From assembly GCA_000092065.1 (NCBI GenBank), contig CP000594.1: a stretch of DNA of 64,000 nt; one strand, given 5' to 3'. This DNA comes from Ostreococcus lucimarinus. Lineage: Eukaryota. The notes beneath the pieces are model-generated. The model was not told the DNA's origin and ran no database searches. It worked only from the letters and a program-made list of their open reading frames with translations. Made by a program: the position numbers and the translations under genes. The stretch's first letter is position 1. The number at the start of each line of letters is the position of its first letter. Below, in pieces: positions 31,981-56,035 of this stretch.

Positions 31981-32270
31981 CCCGCGCGCGCGATCTGCTT
32001 TTTCGTCCACGCGGCGTCCACTCGCGAACGCGCGGATACCGTTCGCTCTCTCAGCGCCCTCCACGTCCGATCGGTTCGGAAGTGACGCGCGCGCGCAGAA
32101 TAGTTTCGCGTCACAACGCAATTATTCATTCCCGTGTTGATTTTATTCTATTCCAGGGGGTATGGGTATAGAGTTTACAGTGCCTTCGTACGAGATATTT
32201 CCCAACACCCTTTAGTACCAAAACCTAATTGCGTATCTTCCCTCACTTTCCGACGTCACGCGCGCACGCG

Positions 32271-35200
32271 ATGACGTCGGCGACGCCGAAACGACGGCGC
32301 GCGCGCAGATTTTTGTATGCGTTCGGAGGACCGACACTCTTATTTAACCTCATGCGCGTGTTTGCCATGTCCGGGCTCGTGGCAACAATTACAATGTCAA
32401 CAGCCGCGGGCGCCGCCCACGGTGGAGGTGCGAGCATGGACGAGGGACCGGCGCAAATGCATTATATGCCTGATCGATTTCGCAGCCTCGCGGGCGGCGG
32501 CTGGCTTACTATCTCATCGAGAGACGTGCACAAGAGCCTGATGCCCATGCCTGGGATGCGCGGTGGCGGGGAAGGCGCGAATGAGTCAGCAGTAAGTGGC
32601 AGCGCGATGAAGGACGAGGTGAAGATCGATCTGGCCCACGGTGACCCAGACGGTGAGCGATCGTGCGATCTCGTGCATTACAAGTCATCCTCGAATGAGT
32701 TGGTGTGTTCACCACGTGCGGTGGATTGCTGTTTGGACGGACTCACGGCGCAGGAGCTCGCCAGCGTAAGCGATGGGTGCCCGTCGGTGAGACCAGAGCT
32801 GAACGTCGAGGTCAACGGTCAGCGATTGACGTGGGGCAGCGCTGGTAGAAATGGAAGGGACACGCTCACGGACGAAAGTCTCAAAGTGAGCCATGGGCAG
32901 ACGCCGACGATCGTGGCGGTCGAGCCGGCTGAGGTTCGTCCCGGTGAGTTGATCACGGTGTACGGACGAACGTGCTTTGGCGATGTTTGGAAGAAAGATG
33001 AAGATGATGGTTCGTCTCTACGTGATGATCCCGACGCACTGCGAGATCTATTCTCGGTTGAAGCGAGCGCAAGAGAGGATCCGCGCCAAGAAATTGGATT
33101 GGAAAAGTCTCTCTACAAGGTGCTCATCGGTGACCTACCGTGCGAGGTTCGAGATCCACTCACAAACAGGTACTACCGATCCGAGCGCGGCGATGGTCCA
33201 TACACAGCCCACCGGCAAACAGAGTGTGGACCCGTTAACGGTTGGTTTCAGTGCCGTGTACCCCAAGACATCGATTCCGGTCTTCATCTACTTCATTACG
33301 AGACGTACACCAGAGGCAATGCTGTGATCCTGTCTGAGGCGCTCAGATGGAATGCATCGGACGCGTCCAAGGGCTACGTGCTGTCAGTGGTTGATGATAA
33401 GTCGGAAGATGAAGATCCACCGCGTGTTTATAACATAACGCAGCTCTCGAAGGATGAGTCCAAACAGCGACTCCTTGTTGAGGGTGCGTCTCTTGATGCG
33501 CCAAATATCGTCGTCGAGCTTGACGGGGAGCGCTGTGGTGGAAAAAAGGTTGTGTCCAGATCTGGCATCGAGGTTGAATGCTCAGGTTCAGCTGGAGCGA
33601 GCTCGCAGTATCACTACGGCCCCCCCGCGTGGCTGCGTGAAGACTGGGTGTTCAAGGACAAGAATAATAAGTTTGTCGGTGGCAAAGCGTGGTCTAACGC
33701 TCTCCACGTTTTGAAGCAGCGTGGAGAAAGGTACAACCCTCTCGCCGACGAAGTCATGGACGCTTTAAGCTCGGCATTGGCAACGAATGGCATTGTCCGC
33801 GGGTACAAGATCGAGAAAGTTCAACAGTATCTCACGAGCCCATCGGTTGGATCACCATATGTTGAGGCAACTAGCGGCATGAAAGCGGCGCACGCCGGAC
33901 TCATCCGTCACCGAAGGATACGGAATGCTGTGTTTGAACGTGTAAGCGGAGTCATCACCGCCAAAGCAAACGGGCGAATGCGCGTGGCGATCGCCAATGC
34001 GGCGGGCAATAACATGGTGCTTCGTGTGCGACATGTTTCCGACAACTTAAATGTATTCAAACCTTGGTTGTTAGTTTCCAAATTTTGCGGCACCAGATAC
34101 AGCAGACAAAACATTTATCGATACGGCTTTTCACAGTGGTTCAGTGTTCGTGGTAACGAAAAATACTATATGGAATTTCTGATGAACTTGGACCCCAGAT
34201 ACTTGCACAATTTCGGGGGATTCGATGTTAAGATGGAATTTTCCTACGACGCGGGTAATCCTGCGGGATCAATTGGGCAACTTACGCACACGACAACGCC
34301 TCACGTGCCCAAACGAGCGCATGGTGGCGATTACGTCGTGCGCTTTAGCGGCGCTTCGAAAACTGCGATCAGATTCGCTCATAATGCAACTTCTTCAAGA
34401 AGCAATTTTGAGTGGAAACTCTTCAGTGGCGGCAAGACCATCGAGTTCAATACGAAGAATTGGTTGCATGCACGCGAACACGTGCGGAAAGTTAGAGACG
34501 CTCTGCGATGGGCTAACTGTACCGCGCTGCCTGAAGACTCAAAGATGTGGGACGCGGACTCGACCCATTCTTCGCACCCATTCGACGTCGAGAATCGATG
34601 GCTCATGGTGCGTGATACGCAGACCTTCAAAGAGCCCACCACAGATTGGAACTTCATATGGCAACGTCGCATGGGCGGATTCAGAGGCGCGTCGATCGAC
34701 TGGAGTACCTCGTACTGTTCGACACACAGTCAAAAATTTGATTTGTCGTCACTACCCCCAGGAAGAGTCATCACTCCTTCTTCTCATTTCGACGTACCTG
34801 CATCTTCTCGTGCGACGACGAATAAGTTTCTGAACTTTGCCTACAAAGTCACTCCGGGTACGCGAGCGACCTTGTTACTTCGTCTAAAGTACCGAAGCGG
34901 TAATCGGGACATATCGACCACGTGCGCGGTTCTCCTCACCCATGAACAAGCGACTGGGAACGTGAAGAACTTCGATCACCCAGCGTGTGTGGACCTTCGA
35001 AGCGTCTTCAAGGATGATGGAGAGTGGCACTTTATTTCATTCGATTGGCGAACTGCGTTGGCCGGTGGTGAGTATGCCCCGAGTTATTTGGGCGAGGCTA
35101 TGTTCCCGCATAAAGTGCAAGTTCAACTCGATGGTATCGGTGTCGGCGCGCAGAGATTCCTCGGCAAGTGTCCGAATAAACAGCGCTTAGCGGAAATGTA

Positions 35201-38200
35201 TGTCGGTGATGAAGGAAGTGAACTGCGCGGTTACCTCTGGTTGGATAGCGTTTCTGTGACACAGGAACGCTACTCTCCTCAACGAGTCGAGACGCCCTCT
35301 GCACAGCTCGGAGGTATGCAAGAAGGCGTTCACGCAATCACAGATATTGAATATTCGGTCATCAGCCGAAGCGATGGCTCTAAGTGCAAATCGCTGTCGG
35401 ACTGTGATATCATCGTGAGCCTGCGTCAGGTGAAGAGATGCATTGATGCGCAGTCGCGAGGCGATTTCAATATTTCGCCGATGGTGATGTCACAGACGAG
35501 TCCAAACCCGCAACCCGCGACGGTCTCGTGTGGTCGTCACTATGCAGCGAACTGCTCGACTTGTCCGTGGAAGGTGTCCGCGGAAGGTGTCCGTGGAAGG
35601 TGGATGGGCTGGAAATATTGCAATGGTGCGTGCGAATGGAGATGGCACGGGCGTATCAATGCAGGTGGCACGTGCGTGTCAAAGCCAGCTCCAACTCCTC
35701 CGGCAATAACAGTCACGGATCGTACTTCTTCAACACGTGGAACCGTCACTGCACAGATCACAGGGGGGACGATGACGCAATTTTCCACCTCTGCCAATTC
35801 ATCTGAAGTGCAGGACGCATTACGTCATGTCCTCGGAGCGCACGACGGAGGCTTCGTGGTGAGTCCAAGCATGGATTTGTTTGATGCGTGCGGTGTGAGC
35901 GCTCATCGCATGCGCGTTGCGCATGCGAGCGATCTCGAATCGATCCAAGCGCGGTACAAAGAAGTCGTCAATGGTGTGCCCCTGGGAATGCTACCGAAAT
36001 CTTCCCGAGGCCGCACTGCGGAAAATGACGCAGGTCTCCTTAATATAACTGTGAATGTCTCAGGCGGCCTCGCTGAGATAGTCGCGACAGACGAGTCGAG
36101 CGATTTCATCGGTATGGTGCCCCTGGACACGAGAACAGATCTCGATGTGCGCGCCTTGATTCGCGGTGGCGACGCCGTGTTGGCGACGGCTGTTGTGACG
36201 GATGGCGACACAGTCGTACCATGTTCTGTCTCACCTGACCGTATGTCTGCGACTGGCTTCAAACAAGTTCCGAACGGGCAGGCATTCGTTGGCGATGCTT
36301 CTTGCCACATCATTGTGCCACACGAGGAAGTTGCATCTGACGCGACCGTGCACGCTCCGACGGAGTTGAATCAGGATGGTTTTCCCTCACTCGGTGAGTC
36401 CGTGAGTCAATCGAGTCCGACAGACCAGAAACGTCGACGGGACGTCGAAACTATCCGTCGGCGCAGCATGTCAAACTCGCTAAAATTTCCTGGCCATGAT
36501 ACCTGGGCAAAACGAGATCTATCGATGAGTAGATCCGATCTTGGACGATTAACAGTCACAGTGGTTGGTTTTGGTGCGCGTGTGCACAACGGCGCCGCGC
36601 ACCGTAGAGCTGCGAATCACGCGCGGAAACTGTTGAAAACGGAACTCGTCGCGAAGGATGCAGGTCAGGGGAGTCTCAACAATACGAAAAGCAAGTATGA
36701 ATTTCCGGCGGGCGCGGGTCGATTCAGTGATCCATCGACGTGGGGTCCTCGGGGAGTGCCGGACCAAAACTCGACGGATATGCTCTTTATTCCTGCCGGT
36801 TTCAATCTTACTCTGGATGTCGCCGATACGTACTTCCGCGTGTGGGTGATTGAGGGGCACCTAAATTTCCAACGGGGCATGAACATCACGATGCAAGCAG
36901 AAATGATCGTCATCAACGGCGACGACGCACACTTTAGCATTGGGAGTGAAACACGTCCCTTTGAAGATCAGGCGAATATCATCATGCACGGTCACTGGCG
37001 ATCCCTCGGCTTGCCCAAATATGGGGTGAAGTGCATCTCACTGACGAGCGGACGATTAACATTCTATGGTCAGCACGTCACGCCTTGGATGGAACTGGCC
37101 ACTACGGCTTCAGCTAACGCAAACGTTATTTCCGTCAGAAGCAAGGAAGGCAAGACTCCAGATCTCGCCGGATGGAAACCGGGTGCGAGTATTGTGGTGA
37201 CGTCAACCTCTTACGGGGACAGGAGATGTCGGCAAAACCGTACAGACGACTGTCAACCCGAGGAGCGCGTTATTGAATCTGTCACTCCTAGAGGCAACTT
37301 TGCGGACATAACTCTCGATCGACCGTTGAAGTATGAACATTTGGGTGAATCCGTGAATGTGGCGGGAAGCCCCCGCGGGGCTACGATTGAGCGTCGTGCT
37401 GAAGTAATGCTTCTCACGAGAAATATCAACGTGCGCGGCACGACTGAACACAATGGGTATAAGCTCGTCGGCTTTGGCGCGCACACTATGATGATGTCTG
37501 GTCAAATGGTGTTGAAAAATGTTGAATTCGGCCCAAACGTCGGACAGGCCTTCCAACTGGGTCGGTATGCCATCCACTACCACACGCCCAATGAAAAGAT
37601 GTTCAAATATGGTTTGACAGCCTCAAATGACCCGAGGATGCAGGGCGCAGACCAGCGCTTGAGTCGTGTGGAGGGAGTCTCGGTCCACCAATCAAACAAC
37701 CGTGCGATCGCGGTGCATGGTTGTTATCGACTGAACATCATTAACAACGTCGCGTACAACATCTTGGGACATGGGATGTTCGTTGAAGATGGTGTGGAAA
37801 TGTGGAACCTCTTCAAGGACAACGTTGTTTCTCTAGTGCATCGCTCTTTCTCTCTTTTGAACACTGATCAAACACCTGCAGCGTTTTGGATATCGAACGC
37901 TAACAATTTCTTCATCGGTAATCGAGTGTCATCGAGTAATCATCATGGATATTGGTTTGACCCACCAGGAGGACCTACCGGACCGTCGTCGCGAACGCTC
38001 ACGGGGCCTTTGGAAATCCAAAAATTAAGCACTCGGAAGGTACCGCTCGGCCAGTTTGAAAATAACAGAGCCCACTCGAATGGCCACTCCGGACTTTGGA
38101 TTGATCAAATAAACACGGTCTTGCAGCAAGGCGGCAGGCTCAGAATGTACATGGTCGGTACCCACGTATGGAACAATGGAATCAACGGTTTCGGAATGAT

Positions 38201-41200
38201 TACCGGCGTTGGGCATCTACAGATTGTGAATACGTTTGCCATGGGCAACGGGATTGACATCATGTATATCAAGTCGACTGGTGCGACGTGGGCGATGCCG
38301 ACGAATGGTTGGTCCGGTAACTTGGTGTACAACGCCACCCTTCGCGGTGACCCGAAACGCAATACCCAGGCAATCGGCTGTCCGCACGGCGGATGGGTAA
38401 CATTTAACGATATCCTCATTAGTGGCTATCAAAGTAGGTTGCCCCCAATACACCACTGCGCTGTGTGTCCGGGTTTCAAAGGCGGCATGGAAGTTCGTTT
38501 CATGAATATGAAATTCGTCGACAGTGATACAAGGCGGCTCCGCGGTGGTTCAACATCTCGACCGCGCGTATTCTGGAACGGGTACAACTCCAACCTTTTG
38601 CTCGACGTGGATGGGACCCTGAGTGGATCGCCAGGTCCACGATGGGCGCATTCAGTCAAGGGCGCCAGTGATGATCCCAGGAACCGGCCGACGGGTCATT
38701 TTCCGCCAGAACACTGCACCCTCAATGATCACATCGGAGGTGTTGTTTGCGACGCCAACACTGTGTCGTTGCGAGAGGTGCAGTGGCGCCGTATCAAGCC
38801 CATGACCCTTATACCCATGGCGATGCAGACAGCACCTGATCAAAATGCAGGGCAAGTGAACTTTTATCATTACGACCATATCGAGCGACGTTTCAATTGG
38901 CGTACGACATTGGTTATGGTTAAAAGTCCGAACGCGAAGCCATACATCCATAACTTTACGTTTAAGTTTAAAACATGGCAAATTGATGACCCGGACGCTT
39001 GGTACATGGAGGTCCGTGAGCTTCAGCCCAATGAATGGGCTATAATGCGATTCCCCACACTCCGCAATCCGTGGCGTTGGAACTTGAATTCAAGAATACC
39101 GACGGTCACATTGAATAACTACAATCAAAGTGATTATAGTTTCAATGAGAGCAAGGCCATCACCACCACGAGCAACGAATGGCTGAGTTGGAAAAATCAC
39201 AAGTTCGGCGACCACACATACCTACCCGTTGTGGAGACAAGGGATGTTAATGTAAAGCCAGATCCAGGGCTGCTCGATATCATGATATCTGGCAAGCGCG
39301 AACAAGGATGGACACAATCGTACGCCCTCGGTGCCAACTATGATGGCGCGCGTGAAGATATGCCCGTCTGCACCACTTCATGCGGAAGCTCGGCAAAGTC
39401 AACATGTGGCATGAAACGCTACAACTGCAGACCGGGCGACAAGAAACGATGTTTGCCGATGGAAAAGCCTGCAAACTGCTTCGACAATCGACCTATACCC
39501 GAGGTAGATCCCGAGCCTAAAACTTTTTCCTGGTGCGACTCAAACGAAGTTTGGTCTCCGCCGGCATTCGGGGATGACGTCATGATCAAGGCTGGTTGGA
39601 CGGTCATCTTAGATGAAACCTGTCTGGTGACCAACATAACTAGACACGTGGATTTATATGGGTCCCTGTTGCTTCGTGATCCAGGCGCTGGTAAAACCAT
39701 CAAGTTCCGAGCGCAGACCATCCACGTCGCGGCTGGGATTGGATACCTCGAAGCTGGTGACCAGGATGATCCGATATCGAATGGCGACGTTCGTATCGAG
39801 CTTTATGGGAACAGATTTTCTAACGCTCGAATGGGCTACGGTATGGAGACAAAGTACATCGCCGTTCTCGGACACCTCAGCCTCGTCGGAAAGGCGAGCG
39901 TGGAGCAAACGTGGTCGACGCTTAGAAGCGATGCGCCCGCGGGAAGCAGTACAATTGAAACGACAGCCTGTGGCGGTTGGAATACTGGCGACACGCTCAT
40001 GATTGGTGGCGCTATGCACAATTGGACCGGGATCAAGCATGCTTGGTTTTTGAGCGCGGAGCGCTGTGATATTTCCTCCATAGCAGTTGCGAGCGAAGGT
40101 TGCGTCATACGGTGTACTTCCAGCTTCAACTACACGCACTCAGGCCCGGCCCAAAAGCACGAGGTCAGTTTTGGTGGAATGCCAGTGACTCTCATGCATA
40201 GGCGCTCTCCAGGTGGGCGCGTGCAGGTAGTTGGCATGGAAGACAAAAACAAGGCACTGGCAGAGCAGCACTATGGTGCTGTTATTACTATCCTGAAACC
40301 GAAAAAGAAAGGCTATGACGCAAAATTGGCTAAGAGATTCAAGATAGAACTCAAGACGCCCGAGCGCATGCAAGCGGCAACTGAAAGCATGAAACATGAT
40401 CCCCCGCCTGAATGCCACCGCAGACAAGGTTCGGCTGTGATCGTCAATGTCAACTTTGCGCATTGCGGTCAGCGGCACTCTAGTCGCGCGTGTGTTTCTT
40501 TTGCCGCCGGTATTGGCGCTGAGTATCGAGCTACGTTCGCAGAAACGACATCGATGGCACTCGTTGCGAACAACACATTTGCGGACGCCTACAATTTTGC
40601 CGTGAGCGCAGCAGGAGATGGAATTATTATAGAGAATAACGCCATCGCACAAACCTATCACGGTGGATTCGAGGTCTCTGGTGCGAACAACACAATGTCT
40701 AATAACGCAGCTGTTCGATTATTCGACGATGTTAGTGATTACTTTCACGACATTGGGTCGGTTGGTTTCAAGTTGTCGGGATCAGGGAAATGGTATACTA
40801 ACGTCGTCGCCTCCGTGCAGTACACTGGGTTTAAAATTCCTGGATATCCGTGCGAAATGATGACTCCAGACGTGGAGGATGAGGGTTTAGACGTTCGCGC
40901 TGTGACCACCGTTCCCGCCGAACCTACAATGCGTGACCTTCGCGCGTATGGTGGCATGGTAGGCGTGAATCTGCGGGGCGGGCGTACTCGGATGGTCACA
41001 CGTGAACCGGTGGAGGCCTACGCGCCGCTCGAGTGTCGCCAATGGAGCGACTTCGAGATTCGTTCAATGGTTTGGTACGGCGTAACCACGTTTGGTCAGG
41101 GAAAAACGTCTATTGTGTTGAAAAACTTTAATATTTGGGACACCGGACTTGGTTTCGCGCTGTGGATGGTCAACGGTGGCTCAGCCGCAGGTTCGAGCAG

Positions 41201-42095
41201 CGAGCGAGGGCATTTCGCAGAAATCAGTGACACGACGATAATCGGTTCTGCAAGTCGATGTAGAAACGACGGCATTGGGTTTCCCGCGTTTTACTTAACG
41301 GCAGAACCGTACCGGCCGGATCAAGGAGTGAAAACGCCATCGCGCTTTGGTGGAACGACGCTAAGAAACATAAGGTTTCGCGATTTCGGCGCATGTGAAA
41401 AGAAAGGCGTTCGTCAAGTTCGTCAAAAGAATTACGCATTGGTGAACGCCATGAACCGTGGGCGATACGCGTGGGTTTACTACGACAACGCGAACCCCGT
41501 GCGATCTTCTGGCTTGAGCTTTAAGGGTGTACCATTCGAAAACAGGTTACTCATGATCCATCCAAGCTGGGGTCGAATAGGCAATGGGAAATGGGGCTGT
41601 GCCCAAATGTACTGCGACGGACATCGCAACACGTTTGTGATGGATGAGGACGGTTCGCTGCTCGGTGATAACGCCGCATTCGGGACCATCTTGCCCGAAA
41701 ACGAGATTGGTTGGTTCAAGAAACTGGCCTATATCGATCCGCTCAGCCGTGACATTCTTGAAGATTTGGTTCCATTCACACACCAGTGGCTGCCCAACGG
41801 TACCAAACTGACGCCCATGCGAGGGAAGCTCTACGACGAGCCAGGCCATCTCAAAATGGGCTGTCGAAAGGAGGCTTCATGGCAGGCGTGGCTCTGTCCC
41901 GAACACAGGCACAGGCAAATAATCCACGAAAGTTTGGACGGCGATCACACGAAGAGGCGCATCTCCCCAACTTCTGTTCTCACAGAGCTACCATCTCAGA
42001 GCAAGCGTTTCATGTCTCTGTACACTGGGCCTGCGAAATACGGAGGAAACTCCTCGACCGAGGGCAATAACATCCAAGCGCTCGATCGAGGCTAG
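32271..42095 (+). CDS. Giant PKHD1/fibrocystin-TMEM2/CEMIP-like cell-surface protein, about 3274 aa, single exon. N-terminal signal anchor, IPT/TIG domains, two G8 domains and two blocks of PbH1 parallel-beta-helix repeats.
   Basis: IPT/TIG-like segments (~32895-33330 and 33420-33600). G8 domain 1 at ~36700-37080 (W-G-P-RGVP...PFEDQANIIMHG...YGVKCISLTSGRLTFYG) and G8 domain 2 at ~39520-39900 (FSWCDSNEVWSPPAFGDDVMIKAGWTVILDE...). PbH1-like repeats at ~37440-38350 and ~40500-41300 (NNVAYNILGHGMFVEDG..., NNTFADAYNFAVSAAGDGIIIENNAIAQTYHGGFEVSGANNTMSNNAAV). First ATG at 32271. The listed start at 32229 is TTG. Confidence 0.75.
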   Translation: MTSATPKRRRARRFLYAFGGPTLLFNLMRVFAMSGLVATITMSTAAGAAHGGGASMDEGPAQMHYMPDRFRSLAGGGWLTISSRDVHKSLMPMPGMRGGGEGANESAVSGSAMKDEVKIDLAHGDPDGERSCDLVHYKSSSNELVCSPRAVDCCLDGLTAQELASVSDGCPSVRPELNVEVNGQRLTWGSAGRNGRDTLTDESLKVSHGQTPTIVAVEPAEVRPGELITVYGRTCFGDVWKKDEDDGSSLRDDPDALRDLFSVEASAREDPRQEIGLEKSLYKVLIGDLPCEVRDPLTNRYYRSERGDGPYTAHRQTECGPVNGWFQCRVPQDIDSGLHLLHYETYTRGNAVILSEALRWNASDASKGYVLSVVDDKSEDEDPPRVYNITQLSKDESKQRLLVEGASLDAPNIVVELDGERCGGKKVVSRSGIEVECSGSAGASSQYHYGPPAWLREDWVFKDKNNKFVGGKAWSNALHVLKQRGERYNPLADEVMDALSSALATNGIVRGYKIEKVQQYLTSPSVGSPYVEATSGMKAAHAGLIRHRRIRNAVFERVSGVITAKANGRMRVAIANAAGNNMVLRVRHVSDNLNVFKPWLLVSKFCGTRYSRQNIYRYGFSQWFSVRGNEKYYMEFLMNLDPRYLHNFGGFDVKMEFSYDAGNPAGSIGQLTHTTTPHVPKRAHGGDYVVRFSGASKTAIRFAHNATSSRSNFEWKLFSGGKTIEFNTKNWLHAREHVRKVRDALRWANCTALPEDSKMWDADSTHSSHPFDVENRWLMVRDTQTFKEPTTDWNFIWQRRMGGFRGASIDWSTSYCSTHSQKFDLSSLPPGRVITPSSHFDVPASSRATTNKFLNFAYKVTPGTRATLLLRLKYRSGNRDISTTCAVLLTHEQATGNVKNFDHPACVDLRSVFKDDGEWHFISFDWRTALAGGEYAPSYLGEAMFPHKVQVQLDGIGVGAQRFLGKCPNKQRLAEMYVGDEGSELRGYLWLDSVSVTQERYSPQRVETPSAQLGGMQEGVHAITDIEYSVISRSDGSKCKSLSDCDIIVSLRQVKRCIDAQSRGDFNISPMVMSQTSPNPQPATVSCGRHYAANCSTCPWKVSAEGVRGRWMGWKYCNGACEWRWHGRINAGGTCVSKPAPTPPAITVTDRTSSTRGTVTAQITGGTMTQFSTSANSSEVQDALRHVLGAHDGGFVVSPSMDLFDACGVSAHRMRVAHASDLESIQARYKEVVNGVPLGMLPKSSRGRTAENDAGLLNITVNVSGGLAEIVATDESSDFIGMVPLDTRTDLDVRALIRGGDAVLATAVVTDGDTVVPCSVSPDRMSATGFKQVPNGQAFVGDASCHIIVPHEEVASDATVHAPTELNQDGFPSLGESVSQSSPTDQKRRRDVETIRRRSMSNSLKFPGHDTWAKRDLSMSRSDLGRLTVTVVGFGARVHNGAAHRRAANHARKLLKTELVAKDAGQGSLNNTKSKYEFPAGAGRFSDPSTWGPRGVPDQNSTDMLFIPAGFNLTLDVADTYFRVWVIEGHLNFQRGMNITMQAEMIVINGDDAHFSIGSETRPFEDQANIIMHGHWRSLGLPKYGVKCISLTSGRLTFYGQHVTPWMELATTASANANVISVRSKEGKTPDLAGWKPGASIVVTSTSYGDRRCRQNRTDDCQPEERVIESVTPRGNFADITLDRPLKYEHLGESVNVAGSPRGATIERRAEVMLLTRNINVRGTTEHNGYKLVGFGAHTMMMSGQMVLKNVEFGPNVGQAFQLGRYAIHYHTPNEKMFKYGLTASNDPRMQGADQRLSRVEGVSVHQSNNRAIAVHGCYRLNIINNVAYNILGHGMFVEDGVEMWNLFKDNVVSLVHRSFSLLNTDQTPAAFWISNANNFFIGNRVSSSNHHGYWFDPPGGPTGPSSRTLTGPLEIQKLSTRKVPLGQFENNRAHSNGHSGLWIDQINTVLQQGGRLRMYMVGTHVWNNGINGFGMITGVGHLQIVNTFAMGNGIDIMYIKSTGATWAMPTNGWSGNLVYNATLRGDPKRNTQAIGCPHGGWVTFNDILISGYQSRLPPIHHCAVCPGFKGGMEVRFMNMKFVDSDTRRLRGGSTSRPRVFWNGYNSNLLLDVDGTLSGSPGPRWAHSVKGASDDPRNRPTGHFPPEHCTLNDHIGGVVCDANTVSLREVQWRRIKPMTLIPMAMQTAPDQNAGQVNFYHYDHIERRFNWRTTLVMVKSPNAKPYIHNFTFKFKTWQIDDPDAWYMEVRELQPNEWAIMRFPTLRNPWRWNLNSRIPTVTLNNYNQSDYSFNESKAITTTSNEWLSWKNHKFGDHTYLPVVETRDVNVKPDPGLLDIMISGKREQGWTQSYALGANYDGAREDMPVCTTSCGSSAKSTCGMKRYNCRPGDKKRCLPMEKPANCFDNRPIPEVDPEPKTFSWCDSNEVWSPPAFGDDVMIKAGWTVILDETCLVTNITRHVDLYGSLLLRDPGAGKTIKFRAQTIHVAAGIGYLEAGDQDDPISNGDVRIELYGNRFSNARMGYGMETKYIAVLGHLSLVGKASVEQTWSTLRSDAPAGSSTIETTACGGWNTGDTLMIGGAMHNWTGIKHAWFLSAERCDISSIAVASEGCVIRCTSSFNYTHSGPAQKHEVSFGGMPVTLMHRRSPGGRVQVVGMEDKNKALAEQHYGAVITILKPKKKGYDAKLAKRFKIELKTPERMQAATESMKHDPPPECHRRQGSAVIVNVNFAHCGQRHSSRACVSFAAGIGAEYRATFAETTSMALVANNTFADAYNFAVSAAGDGIIIENNAIAQTYHGGFEVSGANNTMSNNAAVRLFDDVSDYFHDIGSVGFKLSGSGKWYTNVVASVQYTGFKIPGYPCEMMTPDVEDEGLDVRAVTTVPAEPTMRDLRAYGGMVGVNLRGGRTRMVTREPVEAYAPLECRQWSDFEIRSMVWYGVTTFGQGKTSIVLKNFNIWDTGLGFALWMVNGGSAAGSSSERGHFAEISDTTIIGSASRCRNDGIGFPAFYLTAEPYRPDQGVKTPSRFGGTTLRNIRFRDFGACEKKGVRQVRQKNYALVNAMNRGRYAWVYYDNANPVRSSGLSFKGVPFENRLLMIHPSWGRIGNGKWGCAQMYCDGHRNTFVMDEDGSLLGDNAAFGTILPENEIGWFKKLAYIDPLSRDILEDLVPFTHQWLPNGTKLTPMRGKLYDEPGHLKMGCRKEASWQAWLCPEHRHRQIIHESLDGDHTKRRISPTSVLTELPSQSKRFMSLYTGPAKYGGNSSTEGNNIQALDRG

Positions 42096-43479: not shown

Positions 43480-45918
43480 CTATTTGTTGTTGCTTTCGGC
43501 TTCGGAAATTTTTCTGAGAGCCTCCTTTTGAGACGCGTCGAACGCGTGCTGCATGTCTCGCTCGTTCCAACGCAAACATCTTCGAAGCGAATTGATGAAA
43601 TCGCCCGTTTGATCGGCGTAGTTGATGGTGGGAATCGGGTATTGGCTCATGCGGACGAACACGGAATCCCCGCTCTCGAGCTCGCAGCGATCGCGGCCGT
43701 CGAAGGAGACCCAGGCGGAACATCGAGCGTCTTGCGCAACGCGTAGCTCGATTTCGACGCTGTCGGGGAAAATGACGGGTCGGAAAGACAGCGTGTGTGG
43801 GCAAATCGGAGTCATCAAGATTGCTGGAACGTTCGGGTGCACCATCGAACCTCCAGCGGACACGCTGTAAGCAGTGGAACCGGTGGCGGTGGCGACAATG
43901 ACGCCGTCGGCTTGAATAGTCGTGATGAGTTCTCCGCGATCGTACGCCTCAATTTGAGATAAATACGGACTTGGACCTCGATCAACGAGCAACTCATTCA
44001 AGACGGTGATCTTTTTCGTGAATTCGCCCGTTCCACCGCTTCCGATCTTGTCCTTTGCCTTGACCAGTGTACACTCGAGACGCATGCGAAGCGTAATCGG
44101 CACGCCTCCTTGGATGTTCACCACGGGCTTCCCTCGTCCGATGGATTGAAGCAAGCTCGAAGCCATTTCGTCCGATGGGTGGCTTGTCAAAAACCCGAGC
44201 GAGCCGAAATGGAACCCGAGAAGCGGCGGCACTGGCCCTTGGAATAACTTGCTCGCGTGCAGGATGACGCCGTCACCGCCCAAACACACGATGATATCAG
44301 TTGTACCCCAGTCCTCTTGAGGGATGATGCCGTCCACTTTGCGCAGTTTTTCGGCATTTTTTAAAACTACCGCTCTGTGCAGGGTGTCTTCGAGGATGTC
44401 TGCGTTCGCCAATTCATCCATGACGTCTTCGTCGAGGACGACGGTGATCCCCATCGTCATCATCGCGTGCGCGATCTCTATGAGTTCTGGCAGCAGGCCA
44501 AAGCCAATCTTCTTCAGTAAGAAAACACGCCGCGGTTGTTGACGCCATACCAATATCAATTGTTGCGTGCTCGGGTGAGATATCTTCAGTTCCCGGTTCT
44601 CGACGAGCTCGCGCGTGCACGAGAAACCGTCGGTTCGAATTATGTACATATCCGGAGCGTCCGTCAGAGAGCTGTGTTCGCCAACGACAATTTCTTCCCC
44701 GTTTGCAGTACTATCGAATTCATGATCCGCGATAAACTTTTCTCCGTTGAATGTCTTGTTATTCAACTTCGCGGCGTACTCGCGAACAAACGCCTCCTGT
44801 GCGATCGATCCGAAGTCGCACACGAGCGATTCAGCCGAGAGCGCCTCGTCGACGTCCATTCCTTGGTGCACACGCCAGCACGCGACGAGTGATCCGGTCC
44901 GTCCAATTCCAGCTTTACAGTGCACCAGGATCGGTCGCATCTTGTCATCGTTTACAGTCTCGATGAATCGTTTCACATCCTCCTCCGTCGGCGGCTCCAT
45001 GTCGGGAATCGGTATGTGTACGATGTTGAGCGCGCTCGCGCCGAACGTCCCTTGGCCCGAGCCTCCCCCGAACGCTTGTAGCCACTGGTTATCTCTATCG
45101 CTCCCGCGCAAATCGATGACAGTTTTGAAGTTGTTGCGAACCAGCCAAGCTCGACCTTCCGCGGTGGGCTGCCCTCCTCGATAATACGCCGCAGCGCTCT
45201 CGTCGCCAACTTCGGTGACGATTTGCAAGTTTGGGATCGCCGTTCCGCTCGGCGCGTTCGGCGCGCGTAATCGCGGATGCACCAAGTCCAGCGACGCGCT
45301 TCGAAGCGCCTCGAAGCGATGCCGCACCGTTACCGAGCATCCGCCGATCTCTTCGCACGACTGTTCCAGTATCACTCGCAACTCCCACAGCGCCGTGCGA
45401 AGACGCGACAACTCCTTACTTCGCAAGTTGTTACTGAACCTCCCGGCGACTTCCGCGGCGGACGCGTACACGACCATCCTCCCCAACGCCTCCGTCACCT
45501 CTCCCGAGCATGAAGCGAGCGTGTTATTCGAAAAGTCCACCTCGCACTCCGCCGATAAGACGTCGGCGAACGACGCCAGCACCGCGCGTTCTAATTGCGC
45601 CGCCAACTGCGGCAACGGGACGTAACTCTGATCCGAGGTCGAAGGAAACTCCACGACATCTCCCTTTTCCTGTTTCTTCGCCCCGGTATCGACCGACGGG
45701 AACATTTCAGACTCTGAAATCGCGCGTCGCTCGCCGCCGCCTCGACCTCGCGACGCGTCCCGCGCGTTCGGGCGCGCACCTCCGAAGGCCGAGCGCCGTC
45801 CGGGCAAATGCGCGCGCCGCGCCGTCACTGTGCATACATTAGACCGTTCACGCGCGAGTTTCGTCGTCGACGACGCGCTGACGCGCGATGCCGCGGCGAT
45901 CATCGTCCCGCTCGCCAT
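43480..45918 (-). CDS. NADK: NAD kinase with an N-terminal plant/fungal atypical dual-specificity phosphatase (PFA-DSP/Tyr_Pase_2)-like domain and a transit-peptide-like N-terminus.
   Basis: NAD kinase motifs GGDGVIL, NE..VDRG, DGVIVATATGSTAYSVSAGGSMVHP in the C-terminal third. Upstream C-x5-R phosphatase P-loop ILVHCKAGIGRTGSLVACWRV (pattern HCK-G--RTG-LV-C-R as in PFA-DSP/Siw14-type enzymes). ATG at 45918 (MASGTMIAAASRVSASSTTK...). Confidence 0.75.
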   Translation of the reverse strand: MASGTMIAAASRVSASSTTKLARERSNVCTVTARRAHLPGRRSAFGGARPNARDASRGRGGGERRAISESEMFPSVDTGAKKQEKGDVVEFPSTSDQSYVPLPQLAAQLERAVLASFADVLSAECEVDFSNNTLASCSGEVTEALGRMVVYASAAEVAGRFSNNLRSKELSRLRTALWELRVILEQSCEEIGGCSVTVRHRFEALRSASLDLVHPRLRAPNAPSGTAIPNLQIVTEVGDESAAAYYRGGQPTAEGRAWLVRNNFKTVIDLRGSDRDNQWLQAFGGGSGQGTFGASALNIVHIPIPDMEPPTEEDVKRFIETVNDDKMRPILVHCKAGIGRTGSLVACWRVHQGMDVDEALSAESLVCDFGSIAQEAFVREYAAKLNNKTFNGEKFIADHEFDSTANGEEIVVGEHSSLTDAPDMYIIRTDGFSCTRELVENRELKISHPSTQQLILVWRQQPRRVFLLKKIGFGLLPELIEIAHAMMTMGITVVLDEDVMDELANADILEDTLHRAVVLKNAEKLRKVDGIIPQEDWGTTDIIVCLGGDGVILHASKLFQGPVPPLLGFHFGSLGFLTSHPSDEMASSLLQSIGRGKPVVNIQGGVPITLRMRLECTLVKAKDKIGSGGTGEFTKKITVLNELLVDRGPSPYLSQIEAYDRGELITTIQADGVIVATATGSTAYSVSAGGSMVHPNVPAILMTPICPHTLSFRPVIFPDSVEIELRVAQDARCSAWVSFDGRDRCELESGDSVFVRMSQYPIPTINYADQTGDFINSLRRCLRWNERDMQHAFDASQKEALRKISEAESNNK

Positions 45919-48043: not shown

Positions 48044-49222
48044 TCATCGGTTTGGAACTTGGGAGAAACCACCTAGAAAGTTGAGCGCCAAATTCTTCGC
48101 CGAGTCCGCCGTCAGGGATTGTATTTCACGATCCAAGTGCGCGCGATGCGTCGCCCGCGGACTGGCGTAGGCGTAACTCGCGTGTCGAAGCGTGACCTCG
48201 ACCCCTCGCGTCAACGACTCGTACGCCTCGCCGAGATCGGAATCTTTGAACCTTTCTAACTCATCCATATCACCGTCGATGATGTGCCAATGCTCGCCCG
48301 GACGCGCGGTGGTGGCGATGAGATTCGCCGCGGCGAGCGAGCGCGAGGCAAAGTTTTCGGTCGGGATCACGCAGACCCCGTAACCGTCGACGTCTTCGGC
48401 GACTTCGAAACCGTTTTCTCTAAATATTTCGCGGCACCTCTCCACCGCGCGTCCGCGCGAATTCAAGACGAACACCTTGCTCCCGCGCGCCAGCGCGGCG
48501 TGCAAGAGCGGTTTCAGGTCCTCGTACACGACCTGCTCGCCCGCGCTCGTCCCCGGCTCGCCGTCCGCCGTCGTCTCCATCCGACGCGCGTCCACCGACG
48601 CTTGCAAACCCGCCGGCATCATCCGTCGCCCGTCCCACCCGACGCTCGACTCCACCTCCTCCCCCCACTTCAACACGCTCATCAACTTTATCTCCGGCCA
48701 GCTCGACACGATCTCGTCCACCGTCAACGGCCTCGTTCTTCGCTCGAACCGCTGCTCGTTTGAAAACACCGGCCCCGGCCGCCCGCCGCTCGTCGTCCGC
48801 CCGCCGATGATCGCCTCGTCCGCGATCACCCGCACCATCACCACCGCCTCGCACGACGTCGACTCCGCGATCGCTCGTCGCATCGTTCGCATCGCCTCGA
48901 CGTACGACGACGCGTCTCCCGGGACGTGCTCCGGCCAGCGCTCGCGCGCCACCGCGTGGCTCACCCTCGTCATCTCCACCGTCGCGTCCACGACGGCGTC
49001 GTACGCGAACAGCACGACGTCGCGCGACCGCTCGATGGCGTCGTCGTCGCTCGCGTCGCTCGCGTCCGCCGCGCGTCGCGCGACGCGTCGGCGTCGCGCC
49101 GACGCCGACGCCGATGTCCCGCTCGATCGCGTCGCGCGGTCGCGCGCGCCTCGCGCGGTCGCGGTCGCGCGCGCGCGCGGCTCCGGACGCGCGCGCGACG
49201 CGTCGATCGCCCGCGCGTCCAT
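48044..49222 (-). CDS. Hypothetical organelle-targeted protein, weakly HAD-hydrolase-like, about 392 aa.
   Basis: ATG at 49222 (MDARAIDASRARPEP..., a transit-peptide-like run). Core with protein-like composition (VVLFAYDAVVDATVEM ... KVFVLNSRGRAVERCREIFRENGFEV ... HIIDGDMDEL). The upstream part of the listed ORF (to 50206) is GC-rich antisense of the neighbouring gene. Confidence 0.4.
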   Translation of the reverse strand: MDARAIDASRARPEPRARATATARGARDRATRSSGTSASASARRRRVARRAADASDASDDDAIERSRDVVLFAYDAVVDATVEMTRVSHAVARERWPEHVPGDASSYVEAMRTMRRAIAESTSCEAVVMVRVIADEAIIGGRTTSGGRPGPVFSNEQRFERRTRPLTVDEIVSSWPEIKLMSVLKWGEEVESSVGWDGRRMMPAGLQASVDARRMETTADGEPGTSAGEQVVYEDLKPLLHAALARGSKVFVLNSRGRAVERCREIFRENGFEVAEDVDGYGVCVIPTENFASRSLAAANLIATTARPGEHWHIIDGDMDELERFKDSDLGEAYESLTRGVEVTLRHASYAYASPRATHRAHLDREIQSLTADSAKNLALNFLGGFSQVPNR

Positions 49223-52055: not shown

Positions 52056-53363
52056 TTAATCGCGACCGGAATCGCGCGCGGCGTTCCGGATTTCGGTGCT
52101 ACTGACGTCGACGCGAAAAGACGGGAGGGCGGCGAAGAGGTCGGCGGCGCGGCGCGCGGCGGCGGCGGCGAGGACGTCGGCGGCGGGGACGAAGGCGCGA
52201 GAGACGCGGTCGACGCGGCCGGCGACGAGGAAATCGCACGCGTTGGCTCGGATTTCGTTGAGGGATTCGTCGAGGGCGGCGTCGGAGCCGGCGTATTTGG
52301 GGTCGAGGAGACGCGCGGCGGTGTCGGCGCCGACGACGAAGGCGGCGCCGGGGGCGGCGCGGGTCTTGTCCACGAAGAGTGGGGTTTTGGTGAGTAAACA
52401 CACCGTGCCGGGGGTGGAGAACTGCTCGAGTCGACGCATGATCTCGTCTATGGAGAGCGTCCCCTTGTCGGCGTTCGTGACGCCGATTTCGTACGCGCCG
52501 AGCGCGCCCGGGGGCTTTGTCGCCGTCGCCGCGGCGAGCAAGTCGCGGTGGCCGTCGTGCAAAGGGTTGAACGACCCACTCAACACGACGTTCGCACGCG
52601 TGGCGCCCACTGCGGTGAGCACGCCCCCCGTGAATTCCAAAATCATCGGCGCCGCGGTGGTGGCACCGCTCGTCGACGAGTCGTCCTCCGCCAACCACCG
52701 CTCGACGACGGCGCGAGCGTCGCTCGCGTTTGCGTACGCCGAATCCTCCATCGTCGTCACCGAAACCTCGTCGAACTCGCGTTCGCTCAGAACTTCTCGC
52801 ACTAAATCTACACCCGCGTCCGCGTCCGCGTCATCGACGCTCCGCCTCGCTTCCTCGTACAGCGCTCGCAACACCAACCGCGACGCGCAGCCCTCCTCGT
52901 CGAACCGCGAGCGCCCGCTCGTCTTCTCCAATCGCATCTCGTACGTCGTCATCCGCCCCAGCGTCTTCGCCGCCACGAAACATCTGTGGTCGCCTCGTTT
53001 GACGACGTCCTCCGTCGTCAGCGCGCACGTCGCGCCGAGGCCCGTCGTCGCTCGCGCGTCGCTCGCCGACGCCGTCGCTCGCGAGCTTCCGTGTCGCACC
53101 GCCCTCGCGTACGCCGCGCTCGCCAGCGCCTCCGCGACTTCCCGCGAGCAGTACGATTCCACGTCATCGTCCGTCGCCCTCCCGAGCGTCTCGAGCGCGC
53201 TCTCGCGCGCGTACGGCACGCGCGCGTCCAATAAAGTGTTCGAGCACCTCGGGACGCTCGTCAGCCACCCGAGCGCGCGCGCCCCGCCGCCCGTGACGTG
53301 CAGCACCGCCCTGACCTTGCTCGCGTGGATCGTCTCCACGATGGCGCGGATTCCGGGCTCCAT
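52056..53363 (-). CDS. Two-domain NAD-biosynthesis protein: N-terminal CinA-C/PncC-like domain fused to a C-terminal nicotinate/nicotinamide mononucleotide adenylyltransferase (NadD/NMNAT) domain.
   Basis: N-terminal LHVTGGGARALGWLTSVPRCSNTLLDARVPYARESALETLG resembles the CinA-C core (ESCTGG...GsS...V.YsneAK..lGV), but the conserved Cys is replaced. C-terminal GSFNPLHDGH plus ISSTEIRNA match the adenylyltransferase (H-x-G-H) signature. ATG at 53363. Confidence 0.65.
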   Translation of the reverse strand: MEPGIRAIVETIHASKVRAVLHVTGGGARALGWLTSVPRCSNTLLDARVPYARESALETLGRATDDDVESYCSREVAEALASAAYARAVRHGSSRATASASDARATTGLGATCALTTEDVVKRGDHRCFVAAKTLGRMTTYEMRLEKTSGRSRFDEEGCASRLVLRALYEEARRSVDDADADAGVDLVREVLSEREFDEVSVTTMEDSAYANASDARAVVERWLAEDDSSTSGATTAAPMILEFTGGVLTAVGATRANVVLSGSFNPLHDGHRDLLAAATATKPPGALGAYEIGVTNADKGTLSIDEIMRRLEQFSTPGTVCLLTKTPLFVDKTRAAPGAAFVVGADTAARLLDPKYAGSDAALDESLNEIRANACDFLVAGRVDRVSRAFVPAADVLAAAAARRAADLFAALPSFRVDVSSTEIRNAARDSGRD

Positions 53364-53905
53364 CGGCGCGCGCGCGACGCGGCGTCGCGCGGTGAAGTGC
53401 GACAGCGCGTCCCGGTCGTTCGTTCAAACGTTCGCGTCACACGTCGACGCGACGACGCGCTCGATCGCGCGCGCGCTCGCGAGCTCGAACGCAGGCGCGC
53501 ATCGCGCGGTCGTCGACGCATGCGCGCGAGGCGAACGGGCGCGGCGGCGGCGAACGAGGACGACGCGCGATTGGCCAAGTATCTCGTCGTGAACGCGGAA
53601 AACGTCGCGCACAACGCGCGAGTGAGCGCGCGAGTGTTCACGTACCTGAGCATCGTGTCCGGAATCGCGATCGGCGCGCTCGGATACACCGGAGTGCGAG
53701 GGTTCGCGGCGCACGGGGTGTTTATGCTGGCGAGCGCGTGCGCGGTGGCGGCGAGCAAGTGCGAGGGACGACCGACGAGTTTCTTTCCGTCCGTCGATAA
53801 GGTGTTCCTGGACGGACCGAACGCTGGATTGCCGACGTTTGTGTTGTTTTGGACGCTGTCGTATAATTGCTGGCACTTGTTTTAGACGGTCGGAGGAGAG
53901 GGATC

Positions 53906-56035
53906 ATGAACACGGCGGCGCTGGTGAAGCGACAGCGGCGACCGGTGACGTATTCGCTTCCGCAGCCCGAGTACGCGAACAAGCACGTCGGTGGGGTGAA
54001 CGCGGTGGACTTGGGAGGAGAGGGATCCGATAGCATATTCACCGGTGGGCGCGATGGGACGGTTCGGATGTGGGATCTGTCGGCGGGGATGCCAGCGTGC
54101 GCGCGGCGGTTTGAAGGTCACGGCGGGTGGGTGAACGACGTCGCGAGAGTGTCGAGCACACATTTGGCGAGCGCTTCTAGCGATCACACCGTGCGGCTGT
54201 GGGATATAAGTGAAGGATCGATGTCGTCGTCTTGCGCGGTGGCTTTGCAGGGACACACAGATTACGTCATGGCGTTGGCGTGCGCGTCGGAACGCTTGGA
54301 AGGAAAGTTTGCTTCGGGCGGGCTCAATCGCGAGATTTTCTTGTGGGACATCGAGCGATGTCTCGCGATCAATGCCGCGCCGTCGTATCTAAGCGTGAAG
54401 AATGATGGATGCGTCACCGCGCTGGGGGGCTCGAAGGAGTCCATCTACGCTTTGGGTATGGATGGGACTGGAAACTTGCTCGTCTCCGGCGGTACCGAGC
54501 TCGCGCTTCGCGTGTGGGACACGCGGAGCGCTCAAAAGGAAGGCAAACTCAAGGGACACACAGACAATGTTCGAGCAATCGTCGTCGACACGGATGGTAA
54601 AAAGTGCGTCACAGCGTCGAGCGATAGAACGATTCGTGTTTGGGACATTGGCGAGCAGCGATGCGTGCAGACGTTTGCGGGCATGCACACCGGGTCAATT
54701 TGGGCGCTCGCGTGCAACCGCGATTTCACTCGTGTATACTCGGGAGGTATCGATGCCCGGATATGCGTCACGTCGTTGCGTGATAGGAAAAGTAGTTTAG
54801 TCGCGAACGAATCGGCGGCTATTTTAAAGCTGCGCCTAGACGAGTCAACGCGCGCGAGCGGTTTCGCCGCGCACTCGTCGGACGGCGACTTGTGGACCGC
54901 CACTGCGTCGCGGTCGATCAAGCGCTGGCCGACGATCATCCCGGGCGAAGATGGCTCATCAGCGAACGTAGAAGACTCTCATGGAACGCCGACGAGCACC
55001 TCGTTCTCGCGTCGCGCCGCTGGATCGAGTCTTTTGCGGCAGCCGGGAACGTGGTTCGACGTCGGTTCGCCCGGGGCATTTTCGTTCGGCGGCACGACGC
55101 CGCGAAAGTTCGATAACTGGGGCGATCCGCACGATCGTGAGCCCCAGGACTTAGTGCCGTCGATGGAGATTATCGGTGTGAGCCCGATCGTTCGTCACAG
55201 CGTGCTGAAGAACAAGATGGAGGTGTTGACGCAAGACTCCATGGGTGCCATCGCGCTGTGGGACGTGTCGCGATCGACCCCAATACGCACGTTCGACGGC
55301 GTCACCGATGGATCAGACTTCGAAATTTTACTCGAAAATGAAAGTTTGAATCCAGATGTCGTCGTTCCATCGTGGTTTACCTGCAACACTCGTAGTGGTT
55401 CGCTCGCCATCACGCTCTCGCCAAGTTCGGCGTTCAACGCCGAGGCGTACGCGAGCGATCTGGGTATCGCTGACGCCGCGCCGGACGAGCGAAGAAATTT
55501 AGGTGTCGAAATCATTCGACTATTGATGGATGAGTGGGTAGAAAAATTTACGTCGTCGAAACCTCCGCGATCAACGAAACGGGCGTTCGCCGAGCCGCTC
55601 CCGAGCGAGTGTGCGGTTTCGTTCGCGCACCCCATCGACGACAGCGGTCGCGTGTGCGTCAAGATTCGCGAAGACTTCTCGGGCACACCCACCGAGCGTG
55701 AGTTGCTTCCCAAATGGTTCGCCGATCACGCCCTGAATCAAGCGCCCGAGCCGGAATCTCCAAAGATCAGTTTCCGCCTCGCCCCTCGCGCAGGCTCGGG
55801 TCTCGCTGAAATTTCCCCCGCGAGCGTCTCGGCGCCCAAGATTCTCGGCGCTCAGAAGATTCGCGAATACATCGCACAGAAGTTAGACGAAACAGATGGC
55901 GGAACGAGCACCGATGCCAGCGCGCTCGCGCTCTGGTGCGCCGGCCAACCCGTGCCGTCGTCGGCCACGCTCGCCGCCGCGCTCGCGCGCGTCTGGAAAA
56001 AATCGCCCCCGATCGAGCTCGAGTACTCCAACTAG
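53906..56035 (+). CDS. WDR48: WDR48/UAF1-like WD40-repeat protein (deubiquitinase activator family).
   Basis: N-terminal WD40 blades align closely with WDR48 (GGRDGTVRMWDL..., SASSDHTVRLWDI..., GGLNREIFLWDI..., GHTDNVRAIVVDTDGKKCVTASSDRTIRVWDI..., VYSGGIDARI). ATG at 53906. The listed start is TTG. Confidence 0.8.
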   Translation: MNTAALVKRQRRPVTYSLPQPEYANKHVGGVNAVDLGGEGSDSIFTGGRDGTVRMWDLSAGMPACARRFEGHGGWVNDVARVSSTHLASASSDHTVRLWDISEGSMSSSCAVALQGHTDYVMALACASERLEGKFASGGLNREIFLWDIERCLAINAAPSYLSVKNDGCVTALGGSKESIYALGMDGTGNLLVSGGTELALRVWDTRSAQKEGKLKGHTDNVRAIVVDTDGKKCVTASSDRTIRVWDIGEQRCVQTFAGMHTGSIWALACNRDFTRVYSGGIDARICVTSLRDRKSSLVANESAAILKLRLDESTRASGFAAHSSDGDLWTATASRSIKRWPTIIPGEDGSSANVEDSHGTPTSTSFSRRAAGSSLLRQPGTWFDVGSPGAFSFGGTTPRKFDNWGDPHDREPQDLVPSMEIIGVSPIVRHSVLKNKMEVLTQDSMGAIALWDVSRSTPIRTFDGVTDGSDFEILLENESLNPDVVVPSWFTCNTRSGSLAITLSPSSAFNAEAYASDLGIADAAPDERRNLGVEIIRLLMDEWVEKFTSSKPPRSTKRAFAEPLPSECAVSFAHPIDDSGRVCVKIREDFSGTPTERELLPKWFADHALNQAPEPESPKISFRLAPRAGSGLAEISPASVSAPKILGAQKIREYIAQKLDETDGGTSTDASALALWCAGQPVPSSATLAAALARVWKKSPPIELEYSN

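Follow-up and report, generated by a model that had tools for sequence, protein, structure and literature searches.

One gene of Ostreococcus lucimarinus joins a CinA/PncC-fold domain that appears to lack the deamidase dyad to a Pof1-type nucleotidyltransferase domain

The gene and its two domains

Here, we describe a gene for a two-domain protein in a 64,000-nucleotide stretch of Ostreococcus lucimarinus DNA (contig CP000594.1 of GenBank assembly GCA_000092065.1; this whole stretch is referred to as the window). A preliminary description, made from the sequence alone, had proposed that one open reading frame (ORF) combines a CinA/PncC-like domain with an H-x-G-H adenylyltransferase domain. 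In the ORF listing, 52056..53363 on the minus strand is a single, ATG-started and uninterrupted ORF of 435 amino acids, and neither the ORF list nor the sequence contained an in-frame start upstream of it. Homologues from prasinophytes, land plants, a red alga and Chloroflexota cover 97–100% of the length of the protein, and an identical twin is present in a public protein collection, where its source is given as marine metagenome assemblies. We conclude that this is a genuine, intron-less and full-length gene. Using a 40-sequence alignment as input, AlphaFold2 gave a model with a mean predicted local distance difference test score (pLDDT) of 89.8 and a predicted template modelling score of 0.90, in which both domains are confident. 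That one gene holds both halves is confirmed, and the same holds across plants, algae and bacteria, with the halves encoded by separate genes in no lineage examined; the two-domain architecture is near certain. The gene, its parts and the adjoining spacer are as follows (NMNAT, nicotinamide mononucleotide (NMN) adenylyltransferase).

52056..53363, minus strand: two-domain gene, a PncC-like domain followed by a predicted Pof1-type NMNAT domain (ORF, full-length homologues, AlphaFold2 model)
52836..53363, minus strand: N-terminal CinA/PncC-fold domain, residues 1–176
52593..52835, minus strand: linker, residues 177–257, with an acidic low-complexity loop, helices and a beta-hairpin (secondary structure, pLDDT)
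52059..52592, minus strand: C-terminal domain, predicted Pof1-type nucleotidyltransferase, residues 258–435
53364..53516, no strand: GC-rich intergenic spacer of ~150 bp between the gene start and EMC6 (sequence, EMC6 Pfam match)

Among the homologues, P0002 (87% identity, from a 61.5 kb ENA contig) is the same as the window protein save for a block of ~55 residues. This block is the translation of the same DNA in another frame (ORF 52099..52698, minus strand) and the HxGH motif is lost in it; we read P0002 as a frameshifted copy that stems from misassembly or from disruption of the allele.

The N-terminal domain

The preliminary description had suggested hidden Markov model (HMM) scans for both domains. 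With the single window sequence such scans recovered only the generic CTP_transf_like family: Pfam gave no CinA (PF02464) match for the window protein alone at E ≤ 1 or at E ≤ 10, leaving residues 1–250 blank. The assignment of the N-terminal half comes from the fold and from family-level profiles. Specifically, the top 21 PDB matches in a Foldseek search with the AlphaFold2 model were all CinA-superfamily structures, and 5KOL is one of the Foldseek hits. When 25 homologous N-terminal domains were scanned singly, 20 matched PF02464 (best E 5.5e-6), the sole family to recur, and a profile of the 25 searched against PDB gave credible matches only to 2A9S (E 0.0067) and Thermus thermophilus CinA (E 0.01). 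In hhalign, the family profile aligned with nine diverse CinA domains, taken from E. coli and from plasmid records (tblastn on plasmids, eight CinA genes), with a probability of 94.4% (E 8.5e-8); against the lone E. coli PncC sequence the match was too weak (probability 3.5%). We conclude that the N-terminal half is a CinA-fold domain and a CinA homologue, as had been proposed.

A phmmer match in PDB to Orf34 (5KLP; E 9e-5, residues 44–131) was rejected as compositional, since no fold or profile search backs it.

Catalytic and ligand residues of the N-terminal domain

PncC is a Ser/Lys amidohydrolase; of the A. tumefaciens PncC variants, S31A and K63A are dead while C32A remains largely active (PMC5384747). 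Because the C32A variant is active, the Cys is not the catalytic residue of PncC, and the loss that matters in the window protein is therefore that of the Ser and the Lys; in naming a replaced "usual catalytic Cys", the preliminary description had looked at the wrong residue. We located the functional positions with HMM and hhalign alignments and counted conservation over 40 family members, with the following result (PncC numbering in brackets; all codons on the minus strand).

A56, 53196-53198: general-base Lys (K63 in A. tumefaciens, K61 in E. coli); column M18/L8/T4/F4/S3/A2/I1, never Lys
H22: nucleophilic Ser (S31 in A. tumefaciens, S29 in E. coli) in the hhalign register; column H12/A7/Y6/C5/V3 and others, variable
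T24: nucleophilic Ser in the ungapped register; column T19/A11/S9/P1
S41, 53241-53243: Ser of the G-x-S phosphate loop (S46 in E. coli); kept in 39/40
Y51, 53211-53213: phosphate-contacting Tyr of block P-III (Y56 in E. coli); kept in 40/40
T112: Thr/Ser before the oxyanion Gly; kept in 37/40

The sequence TGGG (residues 24–27) occupies the place of ESCTGG in PncC, and neither H22 nor T24, the two candidates for the Ser position, is conserved in the family. The alignments thus indicate that the Ser/Lys dyad on which NMN deamidation depends is absent from the N-terminal domain. The family has a charged set of its own that is invariant (H13, K122, G124, H126, R127, K147, R151, R153 and E156) and a conserved basic motif, PK[RK]G[DE]HR...KGxRDRxxE[DE]. 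Because the dyad appears to be lost while the phosphate-holding residues are kept and a basic patch peculiar to the family is present, the domain most likely binds rather than hydrolyses a mononucleotide, that is, it is most likely a pseudo-deamidase in which binding of a phosphorylated nucleotide persists.

The C-terminal domain

The H-x-G-H adenylyltransferase domain of the preliminary description was borne out. The HxGH motif is H269-D-G-H272 (52548-52559), within GSFNPLHDGH, and the SxxxxR motif is S421-S-T-E-I-R426 (52086-52103); among family members both are invariant or kept in 39/40. (T/H)xxH and SxxxxR have been defined as the motifs with which NMNAT-type nucleotidyltransferases bind adenosine triphosphate (ATP) (PMC13191266). 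Further motifs in the window protein are NADK (residues 297–300), VGADTAARLLDPKY (residues 344–357) and VAGR (residues 380–383), which correspond to the family-specific motifs NADK, VGxDTxxRLxDPKY and VAGR. Pfam placed CTP_transf_like (PF01467) at residues 261–427 (E 1.7e-4, 22.3 bits against a cut-off of 21). In the fold search, the closest structural neighbours of the domain were NMNAT and nicotinic acid mononucleotide (NaMN) adenylyltransferase (NaMNAT), and its similarity to PDB profiles (E 0.002–0.06) was restricted to the motifs.

Relationship to the yeast protein Pof1 was much clearer at the sequence level. BLASTP of the window protein against S. cerevisiae Pof1p gave an E of 5e-6, and hhalign of the family against 17 Pof1-family sequences gave a probability of 99.5% (E 3.6e-23, 198 columns), aligning query residues 218–433 with Pof1 residues 3–234; the second half of the linker, from about residue 218, thus already aligns with the N-terminus of Pof1. 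On these alignments, we regard the C-terminal domain as a clear homologue of yeast Pof1. As Kato and Lin (2014) are cited in PMC13191266, Pof1 is an NMN-specific NMNAT that does not use NaMN.

Distribution and annotation of the family

Homologues of the prasinophyte type share 56–87% identity with the window protein and those of a second green-algal group ~40–46%; land-plant homologues, usually 380–390 amino acids long, and Chloroflexota homologues share ~35% each, and one red alga also has a full-length homologue. A profile search with the N-terminal domain recovered 3557 representative clusters (50% identity) at E ≤ 1e-3, of which 809 also passed E ≤ 1e-30, and proteins in the best 150 clusters are mostly 370–460 amino acids long. 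A relative is encoded by at least 557 bacterial species genomes, the best 80 of which are all Dehalococcoidia, SAR202 or other Chloroflexota. The land-plant proteins are named "uncharacterized protein", "Cytidyltransferase-like domain-containing protein" or "Nucleotidylyl transferase superfamily protein". The two-domain family is thus old, large, widespread and generically annotated rather than a lineage-specific fusion. In the literature that we searched, we found no paper describing a two-domain family of a PncC-like pseudoenzyme and a Pof1-type transferase.

Bacterial gene neighbourhoods

Bacterial loci were searched with bacterial members only as seeds, and the neighbourhood counts refer to the best 80 of at least 557 relatives, which are all Dehalococcoidia/Chloroflexota and are not phylogenetically independent. 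In more than 30 of these 80 loci (L023–L102), the gene lies directly upstream of UbiD-UbiA-UbiX on the same strand; in ~42 of the 80, a Flavin_Reduct gene precedes it by 38 bp and nuoA-B-C-D-H follows it. The UbiD-UbiA-UbiX arrangement is repeated on the independent metagenomic contigs L018, L020 and L106, while UbiX-like and PNPOx genes adjoin the gene in L105 and a PNPOx gene does so in L103; one metagenomic contig has unrelated neighbours. The eukaryotic loci show nothing like this flavin/quinone/nuo context.

Canonical single-domain CinA/PncC genes were also encountered, on three unrelated plasmids (L011, L012 and L014), where they lie directly upstream of nadE. This CinA-nadE pairing is the expected context for the recycling of nicotinamide adenine dinucleotide (NAD), unlike the contexts of the two-domain family. 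A CinA homologue on a Klebsiella plasmid bears the annotation 2-oxo-tetronate isomerase, evidence that other chemistry also makes use of the fold.

The NAD kinase neighbour and local gene order

The preliminary description had also pointed to a NAD kinase gene about 6 kb away and suggested that two NAD(P)-metabolism genes within 10 kb are unusual for a eukaryote and may reflect co-regulation or common plastid targeting. The neighbour is real:

43480..45918, minus strand: NAD kinase, 812 amino acids, with Pfam domains PTP-NADK, NAD_kinase and NAD_kinase_C

The stop codon of the two-domain gene is 6.1 kb away from it, and four unrelated genes separate the two loci, encoding an epimerase-family protein (plus strand), a protein without assignment (minus), a Cupin_8/JmjC protein (plus) and a plastid-type ribosomal protein, rpS5 (minus). 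This rpS5 shares a 90% cluster with Ostreococcus lucimarinus CCE9901. On the other flank, EMC6 (53517-53885, plus strand, identified by Pfam) is divergently oriented across the ~150 bp spacer, which probably serves both genes as a bidirectional promoter, and is followed by a WD40/DUF3337 gene (53364-56035 region); the divergent EMC6 neighbour recurs in L004, L005 and L007. The relatives compare as follows (identity to the window protein).

L001, 69% identity: whole block collinear, NAD kinase nearby
L004, 61% identity: whole block collinear, NAD kinase nearby
L005, 46% identity: WD40-EMC6-X-...-rpS5 kept, no NAD kinase within 10 kb downstream
L006 and L007, 43% and 57% identity: contigs end 0.4–4 kb past the gene and are uninformative for NAD kinase

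Because the WD40-EMC6-X order is kept down to relatives of 46% identity, it is stabler than the linkage to NAD kinase, and because this linkage is seen only in close relatives in which the whole block is collinear, it is ordinary synteny. We read the closeness to NAD kinase as gene order conserved in Ostreococcus-level relatives rather than as a functional cluster.

A targeting signal shared with the neighbours fared no better. The protein begins at its first conserved helix (residues 3–14; the first 10-residue block has a pLDDT of 96) in register with its bacterial homologues, relative to which it has no N-terminal extension, the alignment starting at residue 1. Common plastid targeting is thus unsupported because the protein lacks such an extension, unlike rpS5 and NAD kinase, both of which have one; and because there is no presequence, the protein is probably cytosolic.

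The extension of NAD kinase is long and rich in Ala, Arg and Ser, and this N-terminus also carries a DSP/PTP-like phosphatase domain (PF22741 PTP-NADK, with an HCKAGIGRTG loop); the same architecture of NAD kinase and phosphatase domain is found in the relatives L001 and L004. The gene without assignment, at 48044-49102 (minus strand) between the epimerase and Cupin_8 genes, has no Pfam match and encodes an Ala/Arg-rich, presequence-like N-terminus; its counterparts are at 4462-5586 in L001 and 9023-10285 in L004. Elsewhere in the window, 32229-42095 (plus strand) is a lone ORF of 3288 amino acids with Pfam matches to G8, CEMIP beta-helix and right-handed beta-helix, whose product resembles a giant secreted protein of the fibrocystin/CEMIP type. 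The region from 22 to 42 kb has ~50% GC between DNA of 60–70% GC, and a second low-GC block spans 1–12 kb. The locus of the two-domain gene is itself ordinary for the window, and the claim of a NAD(P) gene cluster fails.

Proposed function and alternatives

We suggest that the gene probably encodes a cytosolic Pof1-type NMN adenylyltransferase that carries an inactive, nucleotide-binding PncC-like domain. Specifically, the C-terminal domain would adenylylate NMN with ATP to yield NAD+, a step in the salvage of NMN and nicotinamide riboside, as is suggested by the homology to Pof1 and the intact ATP-binding motifs. The N-terminal domain, with its invariant basic patch of K122, H126, R127, K147, R151 and R153, would bind, without hydrolysis, a pyridine mononucleotide or a nucleotide akin to it; rigidly packed against the transferase, it may act as a substrate-capture or regulatory module.

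Several observations weigh against this proposal. The canonical NMNAT models score far under their cut-offs (TIGR00482, 20.5 bits against 112.45), and NF000843 gave the window protein 11.9 bits against a cut-off of 240; the PDB profile matches of both domains are weak at the sequence level. In the N-terminal domain, the register of the nucleophilic Ser differs between the HMM and hhalign alignments, and the Gly of the G-x-S (P-II) motif, present in 27/40 members, is an Arg (R39) in the window protein. Pof1 itself has been reported to have a non-canonical NAD role and an ATPase/quality-control role, and its NMN-binding site is described as unidentified (PMC13191266). Finally, the bacterial neighbourhoods are a lead that points to flavin, quinone and complex-I genes and not to NAD salvage.

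These points bear on the alternatives that we considered. Based on the last of them, the family might serve flavin or quinone cofactors, for example as a flavin mononucleotide (FMN) adenylyltransferase or as a helper that handles nucleotides for complex I or the prenyl-FMN system of UbiX/UbiD. The two main Dehalococcoidia contexts, the repetition of UbiD-UbiA-UbiX on three further contigs and the UbiX-like and PNPOx neighbours of two more favour such a role; the counts come from related genomes, the eukaryotic loci lack this context, and we consider the role unlikely. It is quite unlikely, in our judgement, that the protein is bifunctional, with the N-terminal domain converting NMN to NaMN by means of substitute residues and the C-terminal domain converting NaMN to nicotinic acid adenine dinucleotide, feeding the Preiss-Handler route. 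The CinA fold with its phosphate-binding Ser, Tyr and Thr is retained, land-plant and prasinophyte members have a Ser or Thr at position 24 beside an invariant Gly, and the invariant basic and His residues could in principle serve as a base. However, none of the 40 members has Lys at the catalytic Lys position, twelve members have Ala (11) or Pro (1) at position 24, and position 22 varies; moreover, S31A and K63A abolish PncC activity (PMC5384747), the Ser-less E. coli CinA paralogues YdeJ and YfaY are reported to be inactive (PMC3855486), and Pof1, by the account cited in PMC13191266, is NMN-specific and does not use NaMN.

A mainly non-catalytic function, as an ATPase/chaperone-like factor or an NMN sensor for which NAD synthesis would be minor at most, would accord with the reported ATPase activity of Pof1 in protein quality control and its non-canonical NAD role (PMC13191266), as well as with the N-terminal domain being a predicted pseudoenzyme. 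Yet plants, algae and bacteria all keep the full set of nucleotidyltransferase catalytic motifs unchanged, which argues for retained catalysis, and we regard this function as very improbable. Least of all do we expect a NAD(P) locus in which the two-domain gene and NAD kinase are co-regulated or targeted together to the plastid. The two genes share the minus strand with 6.1 kb between them, their linkage is retained in L001 and L004, and the long N-terminal extensions of NAD kinase and the intervening rpS5 are compatible with transit peptides; but the four genes in between are unrelated and lie on both strands, the whole block is collinear in L001 and L004, L005 keeps WD40-EMC6-X-rpS5 without NAD kinase within 10 kb, and the two-domain protein has no N-terminal extension. 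In addition, with about one gene per 1.5–2 kb and a dozen or more NAD(P) genes in a genome, it is not improbable that two of them come to lie within five genes by chance (a rough estimate, not a computed value).

To our knowledge, plants and green algae are usually described with one NMNAT. If the C-terminal domain is a Pof1-type NMN adenylyltransferase as we propose, the family would be a second NMNAT, of the Pof1 type, that extends from Chloroflexota to land plants and has a dead NMN-deamidase domain built in, and it may bear on substrate recognition by Pof1-type enzymes. More speculatively, and rather doubtfully on the present alignments and gene contexts, the N-terminal domain could be a dedicated NMN or nucleotide sensor or delivery module controlling the transferase, or the family could serve flavin, quinone or complex-I cofactors; either would give the "nucleotidylyl transferase superfamily protein" of plants a new, plant-wide function.

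Comparison with known systems

S. cerevisiae Pof1 (YCL047C) is homologous to the C-terminal part over essentially its whole length and shares SFNPxHxxH, NADK, GxDTxxRxxDxKY and SS[ST]EIR; however, Pof1 has 258 amino acids and no PncC-like domain, and the identity is ~23–27%. The PncC/CinA proteins (PF02464; E. coli PncC/YgaD, A. tumefaciens 2A9S and T. thermophilus CinA, 4CT8/4UOC) have the Ser/Lys dyad that appears to be missing here, and in them the domain stands alone or follows a COG1058/MocF domain, whereas here it is fused to a nucleotidyltransferase. The inactive CinA paralogues (E. coli YdeJ, 5KOL, and YfaY, and fungal CinA-like proteins) share the CinA fold with a replaced nucleophilic Ser; CinA paralogues with this replacement have been reported to be without NMN deamidase activity (PMC3855486). 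Unlike the two-domain family with its own basic motif, these paralogues are single-domain or MocF-fused. Similarity to canonical NMNAT/NadD is limited to the motifs, and in contrast to the NadR and NadM-Nudix fusions, the partner of the nucleotidyltransferase domain here is a predicted PncC-like pseudoenzyme.

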